Origin: a virus
Lineage: Duplodnaviria > Heunggongvirae > Uroviricota > Caudoviricetes
Length of the DNA: 17,392 bases
Reading direction: 5' to 3' (one strand)
Virus record (IMG/VR): IMGVR_UViG_2778261152_000002
Span: 1 to 17,392 of that record
Below the pieces are notes generated by a model. That model had not been told where the DNA came from, did no database searches, and worked only from the letters and a program-made list of their open reading frames with translations. Made by a program: the position numbers and the translations under genes. Positions 1-8,560 of the stretch are shown here, in pieces. The stretch's first letter is position 1, and every line of letters begins with the position of its first letter.

Positions 1-6
1 GAGGCA

Positions 7-222
7 TTATTCACCTCTCGCAGCCTTGCGCTTATCTTCTTTAATCTTGAAATAAAGGTTTGTCAGGTACGTCAGCAAGCCAAATACCAGACTACCCAGC
101 ACACCTATTGCCGCCCACTGTGAGGGCGTGACTTTATCGAGCAACTGTAAAAACCAGTACCCGGCACTACCTGCTGAGGTGCCATAGGCGACACCCGTTG
201 TTAACTTATCCATGGATTTCAT
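7..222 (-). CDS. S: Class II holin (pinholin), phage 21 S-like, with dual start
   Basis: 71 aa beginning MKSMDK (Met1 and Met4 give the antiholin/holin dual-start motif), two hydrophobic segments, charged C-terminus [16 protein letters not shown] at 220-222, SD GAGGTGG upstream, TAA at 7-9. Close to phage 21 S as recalled from memory. Confidence 0.85.
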
Positions 223-257
223 AACCCCACCTCGCAGATGCGGGTGCTGTGTAATGG

Positions 258-282
258 AAATAAAAAGGCCACCTACCTGGCC
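258..282 (-). terminator. Candidate intrinsic terminator between methyltransferase and holin
   Basis: Minus-strand RNA folds GGCCA-GGUAGG-UGGCC (plus coordinates 267-282) followed by UUUUUAUUU (plus A-run 258-266). Lies 6 nt after the methyltransferase stop. Confidence 0.35.
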
Positions 283-288
283 ACCAGA

Positions 289-1341
289 TTATTTCCCCAC
301 CAGCTCGTTTATCTCTTTCACTGTCTGGTTAAACCGCTCTGACTCAAGCTCAACACCTAAGGCCCGACGCCCCAGCGCCATTGCTGCTTTTATTGTGGAA
401 CCGGATCCCATAAAAAAATCAGCAACCAGATCACCAGGTCGACTACTGGCATTGATTATTTGCCGGAGCATATCCGCAGGTTTCTCACACGGATGTTTAC
501 CCGGGTAGAACTGAACGGGTTTATGCATCCAGACATCGGTATAAGGCACGGAGACTGATACGGAGAAATAGCGCCGGAGAGATTTAAACTCATCCAGCAA
601 TTCAGAATATTTGCGATTCAGTGAATCATAAGATGCCACCAGCTGGTGGTGTGGTTGTTCCAGTTGTTGTTCCTGAAACTTCTCTGCCGCTATACGGGAA
701 AACAGTGCCTGTAACTTCCGATAGTCAGCCTCATTCGGCAACTGCCACTGACTGGCACCAAACCAGTGGGAAACCATATTTTTCTTACCTGTGGCTTCGG
801 CAATTTGTTTTGCCGTTATACCCAGTTCGGCACGAGCATCCCTGAAATACGATATCAGCGGTGCCATTATGTGCTGTTTGAGTTCCCTTTCTTTTGCCGC
901 ATAGCAGTCACTTTTGCCGCGATATGGCCCCTGGTAATGTTCAGCAAACAGAACGCGCTCTGTGGCAGGAAAATATGCGCGCAGACTTTCTTTATTACAC
1001 CCATTCCAACGTCCGGACGGCTTCGCCCAGATGATATGGTTAAGCACGTTGAAACGTTCACGCATCATGATCTCAATATCAGATGCCAGGCGATGCCCAC
1101 AGAACAGGTAAAGGCTTCCGGCAGGCTTTAACACCCGCCAGAACTGGGCCAGACAGTGGTCCAGCCACTTAAGGTAATCTTCGTCCCCTTTCCACTGATT
1201 GTCCCAGCCGTTGGGTTTCACCTTGAAGTACGGCGGATCGGTAACAATCAGGTCAATGGAATCATCAGGCAGGGACTGAATAAAATGCAGGCAATCAGCG
1301 TTGATTAAATCAACACTGTTTATTTTTACAGTATTTTTCAT
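289..1341 (-). CDS. DNA methyltransferase, beta-class (DPPY before FxGSG), probably N6-adenine
   Basis: 350 aa. Motif IV DPPY near the N-terminus (IVTDPPYF), SAM-binding FFMGSGS near the C-terminus. ATG at 1339-1341, TAA at 289-291. Confidence 0.85.
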   Translation of the reverse strand: MKNTVKINSVDLINADCLHFIQSLPDDSIDLIVTDPPYFKVKPNGWDNQWKGDEDYLKWLDHCLAQFWRVLKPAGSLYLFCGHRLASDIEIMMRERFNVLNHIIWAKPSGRWNGCNKESLRAYFPATERVLFAEHYQGPYRGKSDCYAAKERELKQHIMAPLISYFRDARAELGITAKQIAEATGKKNMVSHWFGASQWQLPNEADYRKLQALFSRIAAEKFQEQQLEQPHHQLVASYDSLNRKYSELLDEFKSLRRYFSVSVSVPYTDVWMHKPVQFYPGKHPCEKPADMLRQIINASSRPGDLVADFFMGSGSTIKAAMALGRRALGVELESERFNQTVKEINELVGK

Positions 1342-1491
1342 GGATCAGTAAGCGTAACTCTGGTAGGCTCACTCTGCTTTTGCGCTAAAGCAGTGGGCCG
1401 TGGTTCGCTTGTGACCAGTAAGCATGAGCGAATGGCTGGCAGGTGCTACCAACACCCACCAGCCGCCCATTTTCACAGCAGGAAACCGCCA

Positions 1492-1719
1492 TTACTGGCA
1501 GCGTCTGAATTTATTCCCGTACCCGCCGTTATCCTTCGCCAGACCCGCCAGAACTAACTGAGTCAGTATTAACTGGCACCGGGCTTCGCTTACTCCGGTA
1601 GTTCTCGTCATCATGCGTGGCGTTACCCACTTGTCAGCAGGTAAGAAATGAAGGACTGCGGCGGCGGTTTCTGTCATATCTTGCTGTTTTAGCATGTCTT
1701 TTTCCCTTCTGGTTAACAT
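1492..1719 (-). CDS. Hypothetical small phage protein (possible winged-helix DNA-binding)
   Basis: 75-aa ORF with ATG at 1717-1719. An internal ATG at 1693-1695 (Met9) has a better SD (GAAGGGA) and may be the true start. No family recognised. Confidence 0.5.
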   Translation of the reverse strand: MLTRREKDMLKQQDMTETAAAVLHFLPADKWVTPRMMTRTTGVSEARCQLILTQLVLAGLAKDNGGYGNKFRRCQ

Positions 1720-1817
1720 GACATACCAATAACTCTTGTCTAAAAAGCCAGCAAGATAAAAAGTCAGTATTCACGACCACCAGCGTGTTTACTGTACTGC
1801 ACCAAGTTTACAGGTAC

Positions 1818-1840
1818 AAAAAAACCGCTCAGCGGCGGGT
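1818..1840 (-). terminator. Candidate intrinsic terminator (possible tR'-like element)
   Basis: Minus-strand RNA: G-CCGC-UGA-GCGG-U stem (4 GC pairs plus a G.U) followed by seven U (plus A-run 1818-1824). Short stem, so weak call. Confidence 0.3.
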
Positions 1841-1955
1841 TTAAGTTGTGTGGCGAAGTAACCACTCTTAACACGATACAATAGTTTTTGCGTACGCGTT
1901 AGTGGTTATGTAAACTTTCTCCATATAAAAACAGCAAAGAAGCGGATATTTTGAA

Positions 1956-2984
1956 ATGGCTACACTGGACGCATTCAGTAGAGTAATAACTCATCATACT
2001 ATTACGATCGATACACAATACCGTACACAGAAAATTGATGATAGCATCAGATCGAACTGTGTTTGCCCGGTACCAACAATGCGTGAACTTGCTTCTAAAA
2101 TAGTACGTTGTAAAGCAATGATGCACAGTTATGAAAAAGGAGACTTAGTTTTAACTTTGCAAGATGTAATCTTCTTATCAAACAGAGCCGATAAAAAACC
2201 CAGCCATCTTGGTCTTTTAATTAATGCTGTAGATAAAAATGGAAGCACTACTGTGTTAAAAAACATTAATACAGATGTTCGTACCGAAATATCACCAAAA
2301 CATGAGGAAGGTGAAGGTTACGAAGTTTCTTCTCATATGATTATTTCTCTAGACGGAAATATGCGAACCTATGACATGAGTTTTATGCCAATACCAGGAG
2401 TTTCCACAGCAAAAATAAATGGTTTCCTGAATAAAGTTCTCTTTAACGTAGCCAAAGATAATGAAGATATCTTTTCATGTAACACTTTAACAAATGAAGT
2501 ATCAAGTTTAACAAAGAAAAAAATAAAAGTATTATACAAGCCAGTCTTTGATATATCTGGAAAGTTAGATGAAGATTTGTTCAATAAAATAAATAAAGAA
2601 GGACTTTCTGATGTCGTTTTGGTAAAGAATGAATACAGAACTATTAATGCGCCAGATGTTAACGCGGCTATTATTCCTAAAGAAAGTACTTTACGCTTAG
2701 TACCAAACCATGGCCCCAACAATGTCCTTGGATGGATAAAATCTGTCTCAAACTTCTTTAAAGAAGATAAAAATGGAGGTTATGACTTAATAAAAATAAA
2801 ATTCAAAGAGCCAGAGACAGGATTCACAAGACAAGTTGACCTTCAAACTTCAAATGTAAGGCTCGATGGGCTGGAAAAAACATTTATCAAAAAGAGTGTA
2901 ATAAATGGTTTTTCTTCGCGCTTAAAGGATTCTTATGATAGTATTAACATGGAGTTTGTGAATAAGATTATCGAGGTCATGTGA
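1956..2984 (+). CDS. Hypothetical soluble protein, first gene of AT-rich two-gene cassette
   Basis: 342-aa ORF, ATG 1956, TGA 2982-2984. K/N/D/I-rich, no TM segments, no nucleotide-binding or catalytic motif I can recognise. Markedly lower G+C than flanking phage genes. Opposite strand to the surrounding late operon. Confidence 0.7.
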   Translation: MATLDAFSRVITHHTITIDTQYRTQKIDDSIRSNCVCPVPTMRELASKIVRCKAMMHSYEKGDLVLTLQDVIFLSNRADKKPSHLGLLINAVDKNGSTTVLKNINTDVRTEISPKHEEGEGYEVSSHMIISLDGNMRTYDMSFMPIPGVSTAKINGFLNKVLFNVAKDNEDIFSCNTLTNEVSSLTKKKIKVLYKPVFDISGKLDEDLFNKINKEGLSDVVLVKNEYRTINAPDVNAAIIPKESTLRLVPNHGPNNVLGWIKSVSNFFKEDKNGGYDLIKIKFKEPETGFTRQVDLQTSNVRLDGLEKTFIKKSVINGFSSRLKDSYDSINMEFVNKIIEVM

Positions 2985-2991
2985 GGCTAAT

Positions 2992-3567
2992 ATGATTAGT
3001 ATATTTTCACATTTATTTAGACCGTTTGGTTACCTTTTCATTAAGGGAATTAGTGGTAAGTGCGCATACGATTTTTATGCACCTGCCGGGCTTGCTGTGA
3101 TTTCTTTTTTTTACTTTTATTTATTTAAAATACCCACATCAGACCTACTAAAAGATGGCGGCTTTATTAAGTCTATATCTGGATTTGTATCAAATCTGCC
3201 AGGTTTTTATATAGCAGCTCTTGCAGCAATAGCCACTTTCAACAGAGAACAAATTGACTACCCTCTGATAGGAACTAATGGCACGCCTTTTATTAAAATT
3301 ACACGAACAAAAGAAAATGGTAGAATTGTTGACACTCAAGAGAAACTTACCAGAAGATTATTTCTGTGCATGTTATTTTCATTTTTAACTGCCCTCAGCA
3401 TATGCATAGTGATTTTCAACGCTTTTATCACACCACTAATAAACATACTGAATAATGATATAGCAAACTGGTGCTATATCATTATCTTTTTATTCCTTAC
3501 ATGGCAAATGCTTGTTTCAACATTTTTTGGACTATACTATCTTGGTGATAGGATTCACATTAATTAA
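2992..3567 (+). CDS. Hypothetical integral membrane protein (about 4 TM helices), second gene of cassette
   Basis: 191 aa. ATG 2992 is 7 nt after the upstream stop, with SD GAGG overlapping that stop (translational coupling). Four hydrophobic stretches (about residues 22-45, 62-85, 125-150, 160-185) separated by a charged loop. Confidence 0.7.
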   Translation: MISIFSHLFRPFGYLFIKGISGKCAYDFYAPAGLAVISFFYFYLFKIPTSDLLKDGGFIKSISGFVSNLPGFYIAALAAIATFNREQIDYPLIGTNGTPFIKITRTKENGRIVDTQEKLTRRLFLCMLFSFLTALSICIVIFNAFITPLINILNNDIANWCYIIIFLFLTWQMLVSTFFGLYYLGDRIHIN

Positions 3568-3922
3568 CTACCATAATGGGGTTTATAGTTATTATTACAC
3601 CGCTGATAAACCCCATGGCAGTCTGCAATTCCTTCCTAATTGTGCCATCTGAACATCTTCTCTTCTTGGCAATAGTGCGTAATGAGATACCAATAACAAA
3701 GTGAGCTATGATCAGCTCATATTCCTCTGGTTTATACTTTCGCAACCGAGCCACACAACCGTCTATCATGATGCCTTCATCATCATCACACTGGAGACGT
3801 GACTTTTTACCGTGTGGTAAAAGTCCCTTGAAACCAGCCGCTATCGGCTGCCAGTCCACACCACTATTTTCTGCTGCAGCCCATGCTCCCCAGCGGTCCA
3901 ATACTTCATACATATCACGCAT
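3560..3922 (-). CDS. Late-gene antitermination protein Q (small Q family, QuuD-like)
   Basis: Protein MRDMYEVLDRWGAWAAA...IAAGFKGL...SRLQCDDDEG...CSDG matches the about 125-aa Q-like antiterminator pattern as recalled. The track start at 3937 is TTG; ATG at 3920-3922 with SD GGAGA is preferred. Confidence 0.7.
   Translation of the reverse strand: MRDMYEVLDRWGAWAAAENSGVDWQPIAAGFKGLLPHGKKSRLQCDDDEGIMIDGCVARLRKYKPEEYELIIAHFVIGISLRTIAKKRRCSDGTIRKELQTAMGFISGVIITINPIMVVN
3576..3616. repeat. Perfect 11-bp inverted repeat ATGGGGTTTAT / ATAAACCCCAT with 19-bp spacer
   Basis: Read directly: 3576-3586 and 3606-3616 are exact reverse complements. Sits at the 3' junction of the cassette, inside the C-terminal codons of Q. 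Confidence 0.6.
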
Positions 3923-3939
3923 CAACTTTCTCCACAAAA

Positions 3940-4935
3940 TCAGGCCAGCACGCCAATTGCCAGCGCACGATCGATAAAACGAAATATCAGCTCCAGCTGG
4001 GAGCCATACTTCTCTTCAAATGCCACGGTATCCGCATGCAGCTCGTCGTGATGCTTTCTGCACAAAGGCAACACAAAAAGGTCATGCGCTTTTGTTCCCA
4101 TTCCACCCTGACCGTGACCTATCAGGTGGTGGGGATCATCAGCGGGCTTTCCACAACATGCACACGGCTGTGTCTTAACCCAGCGCGTGTACTTTTCATT
4201 AACCCAGCGGCGACGTTTTGGGCGTAACATAAAAGACTCCGGCGACTCCGGATCCACTTTCAGCGCCAGCACCTTTTTCGCTTTATCCTGGATGATACTG
4301 GTGGCAGGAACCGAAGGCACAAGGTCACTTTCCCGGGTGACAGACGGCACAACAGGCTTCGGTAATCTCAGTGCCTTACGGGCTGCACTTTCCGGTAAGG
4401 CATCCGCCAGGTCATTACGAACCAGCCACCAGCACAGTTCCGGCATTGTCACAACGTGACTGTCATCAAAACCGAGATCCCGACGCACGACAGACAACAC
4501 CCAGCGGGCACAGTTATCCGTTGCCATTGATTCCAGCCGTTCCGTGAATTGATCGCGCAGCTGGTTATCGCAGTGCCAGCACAGACGGATTGCGCCCGGA
4601 GCATGTCGCATTGTGGTCATGTTCTCGCTGTGCCAGTCGGAATGAGGCCACTGACAGCCTTTTTCACGAAGTAACCAGCTTTCAAGACATTCCACGCCAC
4701 CAGCACGACGGATCACTGCCTCATTACGGAACACGGCCCGAACGGCAGGATCATCCGCCAGTGGTTGTGATGCCGCCGGAACGGCACCACTGGCAAAAGA
4801 TGAATAACGTTCCGGCTCAGGCTCCAGCAGGACACGCCCCTGCATAAACAGGGGCATCAGCTCTGAACCAGGCCTGAACAATACGATCCCCATACGCGGG
4901 GCAATTTCAGGGGTCAGTAGTGCTCTCACGATCAC
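3940..4935 (-). CDS. DUF968-like phage protein with C-terminal HNH/zinc-finger-like motif
   Basis: 331-aa ORF (GTG start at 4935, 1 nt after the upstream stop). C-terminus CACCGKPADDPHHLIGHGQGG...LPLCRKHHDELH has paired Cys and His-His typical of HNH-like folds. DUF968 assignment is from memory of Qin prophage YdfU-like proteins. Confidence 0.65.
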   Translation of the reverse strand: MIVRALLTPEIAPRMGIVLFRPGSELMPLFMQGRVLLEPEPERYSSFASGAVPAASQPLADDPAVRAVFRNEAVIRRAGGVECLESWLLREKGCQWPHSDWHSENMTTMRHAPGAIRLCWHCDNQLRDQFTERLESMATDNCARWVLSVVRRDLGFDDSHVVTMPELCWWLVRNDLADALPESAARKALRLPKPVVPSVTRESDLVPSVPATSIIQDKAKKVLALKVDPESPESFMLRPKRRRWVNEKYTRWVKTQPCACCGKPADDPHHLIGHGQGGMGTKAHDLFVLPLCRKHHDELHADTVAFEEKYGSQLELIFRFIDRALAIGVLA

Positions 4936-4936
4936 C

Positions 4937-5746
4937 TCAATGAACGGTATCGAGCAGCTTTAACAGCTCAGGGAATCGGGATTCGAAGAAATGCGGCTGC
5001 GTCTCGCGCGGATTTGCAGGACTGGTGATGTTCTTGCCGAACATGCAGCCTTTCGCCGTCAGCGACCAGAATTTTTTGATGTTGTTAATCGCGGTACGGC
5101 TGTATCGTTCGCGTTGTTCAACGATCCCCAGCTTCACCATCTGGTGATATGCCTGATTAGCCGTCAGGCGGATACCATACTGTTTCAGCAGTGCACTCAG
5201 TGACAGCGTGGGACGGCTTGAGCCATCAGTCGCGTCAGCAGGAGCATCAATGGCATAGCGCGGTGCCAGATTCGGTAAGCCAACAGCCTCCTGGAGTTTC
5301 TGACAGGCACCAAGCACTGAAGAGTTAGACAGGTTTAATTCCCGGCGCATAAAGTCCAGCAGAATCACGCCAGCCTGCATCTTGTCAGCAGCCTGTCCGG
5401 ATAACTTTTCCGGCGCGCTGGTTACCATATCGAAAGTACGGATCACCTTCAGATGGAATGACGGGCTGATCCACATTGCATAGGCATACACCAGTTCCTT
5501 ACAGACATACGTTCCCCGTTCATTTCCCCCATGAATCACACTCACCGGGTCAACACCCAAATTCTGGGTGTTGATTAATTCATGAACAAGATCAACAGTT
5601 TGTTGGCTGGAAAGAAACTTTCCTGGCTCCTTGGTTCTGGCATTTGCACCAGATGCTACTGCTGCGCGATGCAGATCGTTCAGGCTGTAACGCTCATAAG
5701 CATCACGACGAACTTCAATACCATCAATGACCATCAGATTATTCAT
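4937..5746 (-). CDS. KilA-N domain protein (antirepressor-like)
   Basis: 269 aa. N-terminus MVIDGIEVRRDAYERYSLNDLHRAA fits the KilA-N pattern. ATG 5744-5746 with SD AGGAGA 8 nt upstream. Confidence 0.7.
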   Translation of the reverse strand: MNNLMVIDGIEVRRDAYERYSLNDLHRAAVASGANARTKEPGKFLSSQQTVDLVHELINTQNLGVDPVSVIHGGNERGTYVCKELVYAYAMWISPSFHLKVIRTFDMVTSAPEKLSGQAADKMQAGVILLDFMRRELNLSNSSVLGACQKLQEAVGLPNLAPRYAIDAPADATDGSSRPTLSLSALLKQYGIRLTANQAYHQMVKLGIVEQRERYSRTAINNIKKFWSLTAKGCMFGKNITSPANPRETQPHFFESRFPELLKLLDTVH

Positions 5747-5765
5747 ACTTCGTTTCTCCTCTTAA

Positions 5766-6155
5766 TCAGGCAGCTGCACCCGCCGTTTTCTCGTACTTAC
5801 TGATAGTGATCTCGACCTTCCCTTCCGGGATAACCGGTCCCCACTCCACCAGCATTCTTTTCACCTGACTGTCGTCTTCCCACACCCCCGCGTGGGTCAG
5901 GGCGTCAAACAGCGCCTTGTTATAGTTGTCCAGATCGCGGATCCTGTTATCCGGAGGAAACAACACGATCTCCACTGAAGCAGGTGCCGACGTTGGTTTC
6001 GGCAGACGACGTAACTGCTCAACTATTGCTGCGCACGCCGCGCTCTGGAATTTTCGCCCCGCCGCGCTTATCAGGCTCTTACCAGCAAACGCCCCTTTGT
6101 TGGGGTGTCGCCAGTACGTGTTCACGCTGGGCGGAAAAGGCAGGATCAGCTTCAT
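5766..6155 (-). CDS. rusA: Holliday junction resolvase RusA
   Basis: 129 aa with PPSVNTYWRH and RDLDNYNKALFDALTHAGVWEDDSQV, matching the RusA catalytic region. ATGA overlap with the upstream gene. Confidence 0.85.
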   Translation of the reverse strand: MKLILPFPPSVNTYWRHPNKGAFAGKSLISAAGRKFQSAACAAIVEQLRRLPKPTSAPASVEIVLFPPDNRIRDLDNYNKALFDALTHAGVWEDDSQVKRMLVEWGPVIPEGKVEITISKYEKTAGAAA

Positions 6156-7618: not shown

Positions 7619-8560
7619 TCACCCCCTGAATCCTGCCGGGATCTGGCTGTAGTCCACGTTGTCGTAACTGGCTTTGAAGTACGGGTCTTCACGTTTTTCT
7701 GTGTGCGTGCTGACGGACGGCGATAAGCGCAGGGAAAGCTCATCCCATTTTTCCCGCAACTTCGACGGGCTGAGCACGTTACGGCACCAGAACGGATCGC
7801 GGCTGACGCGGCTGTACATCTCGCAGATTTGTTTGTGAGTACGACCATCCTGCACACACATCAGGCGAATTTCGTTTGCCCATGCTGTCCAGTTCGGTTC
7901 TTTGGGACGAACCACCTCGCCGTCACATTCGGCGGCCTGCTCGTACAGGGCAATGATTTTTTTCCAGAGCCACTGTGCGCAGGTCAAATCATCCTGCGTT
8001 CCCCACTGGCGCTTTTTAGGGCTGAATACAACCGCATCAGGATGGCGAGTTAAAAAATCCTGTTCAGCCGTCTGCGTGTCCGGTTGCGAAGCGTCCGGAC
8101 GAGAAGGTTTTTTATCTGACGGATCATGTTTTGATTTTACTGACGGATCCCCGCCAGATTCTGACGGGTGAAAACCCGCTTTTTTGCCAGATTTCGACGC
8201 ATCAAATTTTGACGGGTCAGATTTTGATGCGTCAGATTTTGACGGGTCAGAATCTGACAGTTGAGAAAATGCCGCTGCCTGAAGCTTCGCAACGTTAAGC
8301 TGATAAACATTCGACGCATTGCGGTTACCCTGGCGACGCGCCTTACGCGTTAACCAGCCTTCTGCTTCCAGCCGTGCGATAGCCGTCCTGACGGTACTCA
8401 TCCCCGCGCCAATCTGACGGGCAATAGTTTCAATTGATGGCCAGCACACACCTTCGTCATTACTGAAATCAGCCAGGCGGGCCATAATTGCCACGCTGGA
8501 TAATTTCATGCCTGATGCAGCGCAACCATCCCATACATAGCCGGTTAATTTAGTGCTCAT
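7619..8560 (-). CDS. Replication initiator (O-like): N-terminal HTH, iteron-encoded linker, DnaT-like C-terminal domain
   Basis: 313 aa. N-terminal winged-helix-like segment, central pentapeptide repeats (DPSKS DASKS DPSKF DASKS) encoded by the 15-bp DNA repeats, C-terminus ending ...YSQIPAGFRG like the C-terminus of primosomal protein DnaT (recalled). ATG 8558-8560 with SD GAGG. Confidence 0.8.
   Translation of the reverse strand: MSTKLTGYVWDGCAASGMKLSSVAIMARLADFSNDEGVCWPSIETIARQIGAGMSTVRTAIARLEAEGWLTRKARRQGNRNASNVYQLNVAKLQAAAFSQLSDSDPSKSDASKSDPSKFDASKSGKKAGFHPSESGGDPSVKSKHDPSDKKPSRPDASQPDTQTAEQDFLTRHPDAVVFSPKKRQWGTQDDLTCAQWLWKKIIALYEQAAECDGEVVRPKEPNWTAWANEIRLMCVQDGRTHKQICEMYSRVSRDPFWCRNVLSPSKLREKWDELSLRLSPSVSTHTEKREDPYFKASYDNVDYSQIPAGFRG
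8114..8260. repeat. Iteron array (candidate replication origin) inside the initiator gene
   Basis: At least five tandem 15-bp units (CCAGATTTCGACGCA, TCAAATTTTGACGGG, TCAGATTTTGATGCG, TCAGATTTTGACGGG, TCAGAATCTGACAG) at 8187-8260, plus degenerate copies at 8114-8170. Analogous to lambda ori inside gene O. Confidence 0.6.

Follow-up and report, generated by a model that had tools for sequence, protein, structure and literature searches.

The perfect inverted repeat at the junction between the PDC-M53 cassette and the antiterminator gene Q in the window (the whole stretch of 17,392 nt of phage DNA analysed here) is regarded by us, with moderate confidence, as a conserved stem-loop which belongs to the 3' end of the PDC-M53 operon and acts in the RNA as a transcript-end element. 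Comparison of homologous junctions establishes that the stem is real, that it is linked to the cassette and that it is maintained at the nucleotide level. It would most likely serve to form or protect the cassette mRNA's 3' end and, to some extent, to insulate the cassette and Q from each other, and the hairpin would most likely be an ordinary transcript-end hairpin of a horizontally acquired cassette. It represents a clean case of a nucleic-acid structure that is kept within two overlapping convergent genes, in which compensatory changes are synonymous and one arm persists in a different reading frame.

Geometry of the junction hairpin and its neighbouring genes

The cassette (1956-3567, plus strand) consists of two genes which are convergent to Q and match the PADLOC candidate defence system PDC-M53. 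The first gene (1956..2984) encodes a PDC-M53A homologue of 342 aa (PDLC04696, E = 1.3e-31). The last gene (2992..3567) encodes a predicted membrane protein of 191 aa, a homologue of PDC-M53B (PDLC04699, E = 1.7e-54), which covers 185 of the 188 profile positions. Since adjacent genes match both profiles, the gene content of PDC-M53 is present. The G+C content is 26-36% in the cassette vs about 50% in the flanks. A Pfam search with both cassette proteins assigned them to no family, and neither a transposase nor a recombinase was found in the cassette. PDC-M53 is a candidate anti-phage system and 'defence' is used here as a candidate label. A literature search on the function of PDC-M53 or on this junction returned no paper, and the one paper found to name the system does so only as 'phage defense candidate'.

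On the minus strand, Q (3560..3922) encodes a small antiterminator of 120 aa (Pfam PF06530, E = 2.8e-45, profile positions 1-113 of 118). Its start was set at the ATG at 3922, the mechanically called ORF opening at a TTG at 3937, and the RefSeq annotation of strain 14EC007 has the same Q gene. The surrounding minus strand is the late-regulation region of a lambdoid prophage, with replication genes, a LexA-like gene, RusA, a KilA-N gene, a DUF968 (NinG-like) gene and the small Q. A DNA methylase and a holin are encoded further downstream of Q on the same strand.

The inverted repeat was confirmed as perfect over 11 bp. Its left arm ATGGGGTTTAT (3576..3586) and right arm ATAAACCCCAT (3606..3616) are 100% complementary and enclose a spacer of 19 nt (3587..3605); the complementarity ends at 11 bp, without any extension beyond. 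The repeat starts 9 nt past the stop codon of the 191-aa gene and lies entirely inside the last 19 codons of the convergent Q gene. On the Q strand the left arm codes for Ile-Asn-Pro-Ile in the variable C-terminal tail of the protein and the spacer for Ser-Gly-Val-Ile-Ile-Thr, while the right arm is the reverse complement of the codons for Met-Gly-Phe-Ile. The stop codons of the 191-aa gene (TAA 3565-3567, plus strand) and of Q (TAA 3560-3562, minus strand) share the palindrome TTAATTAA (3560-3567), by which the two genes overlap by 8 nt. Past the stem, the plus strand reads GGCAGUCU and the minus strand UAUGGUAG. A U tract (at least 5 U in 8 nt) follows the stem on neither strand and the site is absent from the terminator scan. 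The original prediction had given this position, the overlap with Q, the missing U tract and the difference from a classic terminator, and both the sequence and the terminator scan agree with that description.

Dinucleotide-preserving shuffles were used to estimate the chance level of such a structure. Perfect 11-bp repeats with a spacer of 3-30 nt are expected 0.13 times per whole window and about 0.0008 times per 200-nt junction segment, and chance does not explain the repeat. The 11-mer is confined to the two arms, as no further copy was found in the whole window with one mismatch allowed. A permissive search of positions 1-6000 of the window with the Rfam 15 covariance models (E up to 1) gave no match. 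As RNA, the 58-nt junction folds with -16.6 kcal/mol (z = -2.6) on the plus strand and with -20.6 kcal/mol (z = -4.0) on the minus strand. Only 4 of the 11 bp are G-C pairs and the stem is A/U-rich, so that, given the long loop, the hairpin is only moderately stable. An intrinsic terminator was rejected on account of the few G-C pairs, the loop of 19 nt instead of a short one of 3-8 nt, and the missing U tract.

Covariation of the stem across homologous junctions

The right arm corresponds to ATG GGG TTT AT(C) on the Q strand, and the encoded motif is conserved across this Q family. The 11-mer occurs in Q genes which stand beside other cassettes, as an exact copy in L009 and with one mismatch in L008. 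The first bases of this arm, 3606-3608, are where nucleotide homology (about 90% identity) with the nearest other Q genes sets in. The left arm and the spacer were found only alongside the PDC-M53 cassette, in 15 of 5,426 complete E. coli genomes. The full repeat is identical in all 15 of them, the single nearby difference, in one strain, falling one base outside the stem. The tripeptide Ile-Asn-Pro, encoded by the left arm, recurs in several Q tails. The Q genes beside other cassettes lack the left arm; the hairpin follows the cassette and not Q. It had been proposed that the same repeat in related phages without the cassette would reveal it as plain Q coding sequence; this applies to the right arm, which is present in Q genes without this cassette, but not to the full repeat, which occurs only with it.

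Diverged homologues of PDC-M53B were gathered from IMG/VR, metagenomes, one species-representative genome and a protein collection. The scan of species-representative genomes with the B protein yielded two loci only, one of them a 100% identical, contaminant-like MAG contig. The 2.2-kb contig L016 (JBJFHC010000248.1), binned as an Erysipelotrichaceae MAG, carries a PDC-M53B 100% identical to that of the window and an identical junction; it is almost certainly a fragment of an enterobacterial prophage which was mis-binned. A convergent Q adjoins every B homologue of at least 62% protein identity.

The covariation set comprised 12 distinct junctions of at least 74% protein identity from Escherichia, Enterobacter, Cronobacter and Serratia. 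In all 12 junctions the stem is found at the same place, in 9 of them with the arm-to-arm spacing of the window, while the loops differ in sequence. Pairing is kept almost throughout in the nine core pairs, and 6 of 14 pairs are altered on both sides. The observed covariation was 0.206 vs 0.112 after shuffling and was reached by 0 of 500 shuffles, figures which, with 12 sequences from few independent lineages, do not represent probabilities. In register, 80.6% of the cells are paired, vs 30-49% with the partners slid by 1-3 columns. A smaller set of homologues gave an agreeing result. Nine of the 12 sequences are also under Q coding constraint on both arms.

Several single changes illustrate how the stem is kept. 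In L123 and L125, GGGATTTAT pairs with ATAAATCCC, where a G-C pair has become A-U without altering the amino acid of either Q codon (Gly GGG->GGA, Asn AAC->AAT), and L230 has the G.U intermediate of this change. Two further compensatory pairs are found in L231 (Serratia rubidaea), in which GAGGTTTACA pairs with TGTAAACCTC. Translation of the left arm gives Ile-Asn-Pro in most loci; L040 and L233 have a loop shortened by one base, and their left arm is read in another frame as Leu-Thr-Pro. The convergent genes overlap by 4, 8 or 11 nt in the homologous loci or leave a gap of 7 or 77 nt. The largest gap belongs to L127/L232 and L231, where Q is of a different subtype, its stop lies 77 nt past that of PDC-M53B, and all of the hairpin falls between the two genes.

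Because of these compensatory changes, the left arm kept in two frames and the hairpin kept where it is intergenic, the junction stem can be concluded to be maintained by selection at the nucleic-acid level and not on the peptide. A remnant of the insertion event, as had also been suggested, does not agree with compensatory substitutions across genera. The proposed search for a matching repeat, with one mismatch allowed, gave none at the other boundary or elsewhere in the window. A terminal inverted repeat or insertion scar of a mobile element was likewise rejected, for want of such a matching repeat and of a transposase or recombinase; the left cassette boundary abuts the conserved putative late-promoter block without any repeat.

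Beside the intergenic hairpin of the Serratia locus (L127:3110-3150), about 25 nt read ...Lys-Thr-Asp-Met-Gly-Leu-Ile on the Q strand by hand translation. This stretch resembles what is left of a degenerated Q 3' end that moved along with the cassette.

A second stem-loop (3452..3485) is located inside the PDC-M53B coding region, 80 nt ahead of the stop. It consists of perfect 14-bp arms, ATAATGATATAGCA and TGCTATATCATTAT, around a 6-nt loop and is followed by the T-rich CTTTTTATT. It is a stronger repeat than that of the junction, and the terminator scan flagged it as terminator-like on both strands. This stem-loop covaries in 7 homologues as well, with 86.7% of the cells paired and 5 pairs changed on both sides, some of these changes altering amino acids.

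Probable role at the transcript end and alternative readings

In the reading we favour, the low-G+C PDC-M53 cassette would have been inserted in opposite orientation between Q and the late promoter of Q. The hairpin is built into the C-terminal codons of Q because the cassette gene and Q converge and overlap; one arm would borrow the conserved Met-Gly-Phe-Ile codons, and the other would fall in the variable tail. By itself, the hairpin is probably inefficient as a terminator because it lacks a U tract. Rho loads onto untranslated C-rich, G-poor RNA, and Rho-dependent termination is followed by trimming back to a stable stem by 3' exonucleases. The plus strand downstream of the hairpin, which is antisense to both Q and the DUF968 gene, is rich in C and poor in G (GC skew -0.25 to -0.31). 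Untranslated read-through into the C-rich antisense-Q sequence might be ended by Rho or by head-on collisions of polymerases. In that case the stem-loop would set the 3' end of the mRNA, shield it from 3'-to-5' exonucleases and keep read-through between cassette and Q low.

Among the three options given in the original prediction, a role at the 3' end of the cassette transcript appears to fit best: the hairpin travels with the cassette and covaries, and distant homologues have terminators at this place. A Rho-dependent element or an antisense element against the Q mRNA, the second option, may also be involved; what speaks for it is the C-rich, G-poor plus strand downstream. In the B homologues of 62-69% identity with a Q context, a different hairpin, TTAAGCCC-loop-GGGCTTAA with variable loops, straddles both stops. 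The B homologues of at most 58% identity come from metagenome contigs only and have no Q within 600 nt downstream; many of them carry a canonical intrinsic terminator directly past the stop.

Several known systems resemble the junction hairpin in part. Prophage 'morons', reportedly described by Juhala et al. and by Hendrix et al. (2000), are independent transcription units inserted between phage genes. As with the terminator hairpins of morons, a low-G+C insert is found between genes that are adjacent in a cassette-free relative and a stem-loop follows right after the last gene; unlike them, the stem of the window has no U tract, has a loop of 19 nt and lies inside the coding tail of the convergent neighbour instead of being intergenic. 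Stem-loops were described to position polymerase collisions between convergent genes of E. coli (Wang et al., bioRxiv 10.1101/2022.10.23.513370). Like these bidirectional terminators, the window has a palindromic stem-loop (3576-3616) where two convergent genes end, foldable in both transcripts. However, the A tract upstream and the U tract downstream are missing at the junction hairpin and the element is inside an ORF. In addition, both units of the window may not be transcribed simultaneously, since Q is expected to be silent in the lysogen.

Hairpins of REP elements in 3' UTRs attenuate transcription, partly via Rho, and stabilise the upstream mRNA (Harris et al., bioRxiv 10.64898/2026.03.23.713779). 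The junction hairpin similarly is a stem-loop without a U tract just past a stop codon, which could plausibly both end the transcript and stabilise it. It differs from REP elements in being single-copy, in being tied to one cassette family and in having no Rfam match; inspection by eye against the REP consensus revealed no REP-like sequence in it. A covarying stem just past the stop, 9 nt in the window and supported by 12 sequences, is what is expected of a protective 3' stem-loop.

Wobble pairs of the junction stem, from few lineages, do not single out an acting strand, with 9 G.U on the plus strand vs 6 on the minus strand (p = 0.30); an earlier count over both stem-loops (3452-3485 and 3576-3616) gave 12 vs 5. 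The fold energies of the two strands are similar in the window and in the homologues. It is conceivable, although unlikely, that the hairpin acts mainly in the Q transcript on the minus strand, as a 3' end or stability element of the early Q-carrying RNA or as a barrier to an antisense run through the cassette. The minus-strand fold is at least as stable as that of the plus strand, in the window (-20.6 kcal/mol, z = -4.0) and in several homologues, and six stem positions are G.U on the minus strand only. In L127 and L231, moreover, the hairpin is located just downstream of the Q stop, as a 3' hairpin of the Q mRNA would be. On the other hand, the element tracks the cassette, Q genes by other cassettes being without the left arm, and in the window a translating ribosome would unwind the stem inside the Q frame. 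The minus strand also lacks a U tract.

Quite unlikely, in our estimate, is a regulatory switch in which the 3' end of the cassette mRNA, antisense to at least the last 57 nt of Q, holds down leaky expression of Q in the lysogen. In the lytic cycle, conversely, transcription of Q would continue in antisense over the cassette and silence it, which would amount to self-immunity. The 8-nt gene overlap, the hairpin within Q and the cassette between Q and the putative late promoter all suit such a switch. Precedents come from phage lambda, in which OOP RNA lies antisense to the 3' end of cII and Q is covered in antisense by the paQ transcript. The arrangement of the window resembles both in that a convergent transcript carries a 3' hairpin in the last codons of a phage regulator, Q itself being the target of paQ. 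In contrast to OOP and paQ, however, the convergent RNA is here no dedicated small RNA but part of an mRNA, namely its 3' end, and the hairpin is conserved off Q too. As it is equally conserved without Q overlap in L127 and L231, antisense pairing with the Q codons cannot be what maintains the stem. Furthermore, most other cassettes at the site end outside Q.

An extended form of this idea, in which both stem-loops (3452-3485 and 3576-3616) and the position of the cassette together form a convergent-transcription switch that gives the prophage self-immunity, is considered decidedly improbable. In lysogenic cells the defence mRNA would owe its stability to the structured 3' end, and leaky Q would be dampened by the antisense overlap. 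After induction, polymerases passing through Q would transcribe the cassette in antisense and thereby switch off a membrane effector that is potentially suicidal, so that self-immunity would arise from gene position alone. If the hairpin indeed controls the cross-talk between a defence operon expressed in the lysogen and Q, this would bear on how prophages spare their own lytic cycle.

An element acting at the DNA level, such as a cruciform, a single-strand hairpin or a palindromic protein-binding site which serves cassette exchange or regulation, is very improbable. Two observations are compatible with it: homology to the nearest other Q genes breaks off precisely where the right arm begins (3606-3608), and the site is a cassette-exchange hotspot. 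The binding site of a dimer would also give symmetric changes in both arms. Against it, the cassette contains no recombinase or transposase and the other boundary no partner repeat, G.T is tolerated in the stem and the arm spacing differs in 3 of 12 homologues. Other cassettes have unrelated hairpins, and their exchange is explained by recombination in conserved flanks. An integron attC-like site was rejected on the same grounds, namely the unrelated hairpins of other cassettes and the conserved flanks that explain exchange, together with the absence of an integrase. Finally, a functionless product of chance or coding is barely credible: the right arm is conserved Q coding sequence and the left arm codes for a tripeptide recurrent in Q tails, but the chance expectation at the junction (0.0008), the compensatory synonymous changes and a left arm that is kept in a second frame and in non-coding settings speak against it.

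Exchange of cassettes between Q and its putative late promoter

The left boundary of the cassette is formed by a small-Q-specific block (1837..1902, minus strand), which is followed by an intrinsic terminator (1824..1836, minus strand; GCCGCTGAGCGGT then T7), presumably the tR' of the late leader transcript. The block of about 65 nt is common to all small-Q loci, irrespective of the cassette. In the cassette-free relative L168 it begins only 13 nt past the Q stop. The big-Q phages Ayreon, 720R4 and SfV share the terminator and all sequence beyond it, and other sequence replaces the block; the records of Ayreon and SfV annotate the homologous site as a terminator. Since the block is shared by small-Q loci, adjoins the Q stop in L168 and is replaced in big-Q phages, it appears to go with the Q type. 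We infer that it is the late promoter of Q itself and the Q-utilisation site. If so, the cassette would separate Q from its site of action.

Among the 80 closest relatives of Q in IMG/VR (L148-L227), 31 distinct downstream contexts were found, and one site is empty (L168). In nearly all contexts a convergent ORF is present, its end falling anywhere from 24 nt ahead of the Q stop to 61 nt past it. At this site the relatives carry over 20 different convergent cassettes; in annotated E. coli genomes they include a TIGR04255-family set and a pair of nucleoid-associated proteins. Judged from these contexts, the junction between the small-Q stop and the putative late-promoter block is a hotspot of cassette exchange, which is explained by homologous recombination in the conserved flanks. 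Many of the cassettes are likely to be defence genes. The hairpin fixes the boundaries of the cassette and marks the Q/late-promoter junction of small-Q lambdoid phages as a busy exchange site, which is useful for mining prophages for new defence systems or for engineering prophages.

Other cassettes at the site were also surveyed for hairpins. In the interval of -60 to +70 nt around the Q stop, 15 of 22 cassette contexts by close Q relatives have a perfect inverted repeat of 7 bp or longer, vs 13.9% of 440 background segments (Mann-Whitney p = 1e-9). This count of perfect stems was substituted for a survey of free energies in 44-nt windows, in which 24 Q junctions did not differ significantly from 144 background segments (p = 0.19), probably due to the G+C-rich flanks. 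The hairpins of the other cassettes are unrelated in sequence, and most of them are compact and GC-rich. The repeat of the window is the positional equivalent of the terminator hairpins which end cassettes at the Q site, from which it differs by its long loop, the missing U tract and its location inside Q.

A hairpin within Q codons was also seen in L183. There, a 9-bp perfect repeat (ACAGCCCTT, 10 nt, AAGGGCTGT) is located inside the C-terminal codons of Q (Thr-Ala-Leu ... Glu-Gly-Leu), 21-48 nt upstream of the Q stop (Q match L183:1743-2084) and beside an unrelated convergent ORF of 299 aa. Hairpins in the tail of Q may thus have originated repeatedly.

Two further repeats were noted in the window. 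A 16-nt direct repeat, identical at 15 of 16 positions, is formed by ATGACATACCAATAAC (1718-1733), at the start of a small ORF (1492-1719), and ATGAGATACCAATAAC (3682-3697), inside Q; by a rough estimate, about 0.03 such repeats are expected by chance in a region of 2.4 kb. It was rejected as a boundary repeat of the cassette, as its first copy lies in sequence common to all relatives. A third perfect 11-bp inverted repeat (8196-8206 / 8223-8233, spacer 16 nt) is located inside a minus-strand gene for a helix-turn-helix protein (RefSeq product name) of 313 aa, which has a Ser/Asp/Pro/Lys-rich repeat. This gene may be replication-related and the repeat at 8196-8233 may be related to an origin.
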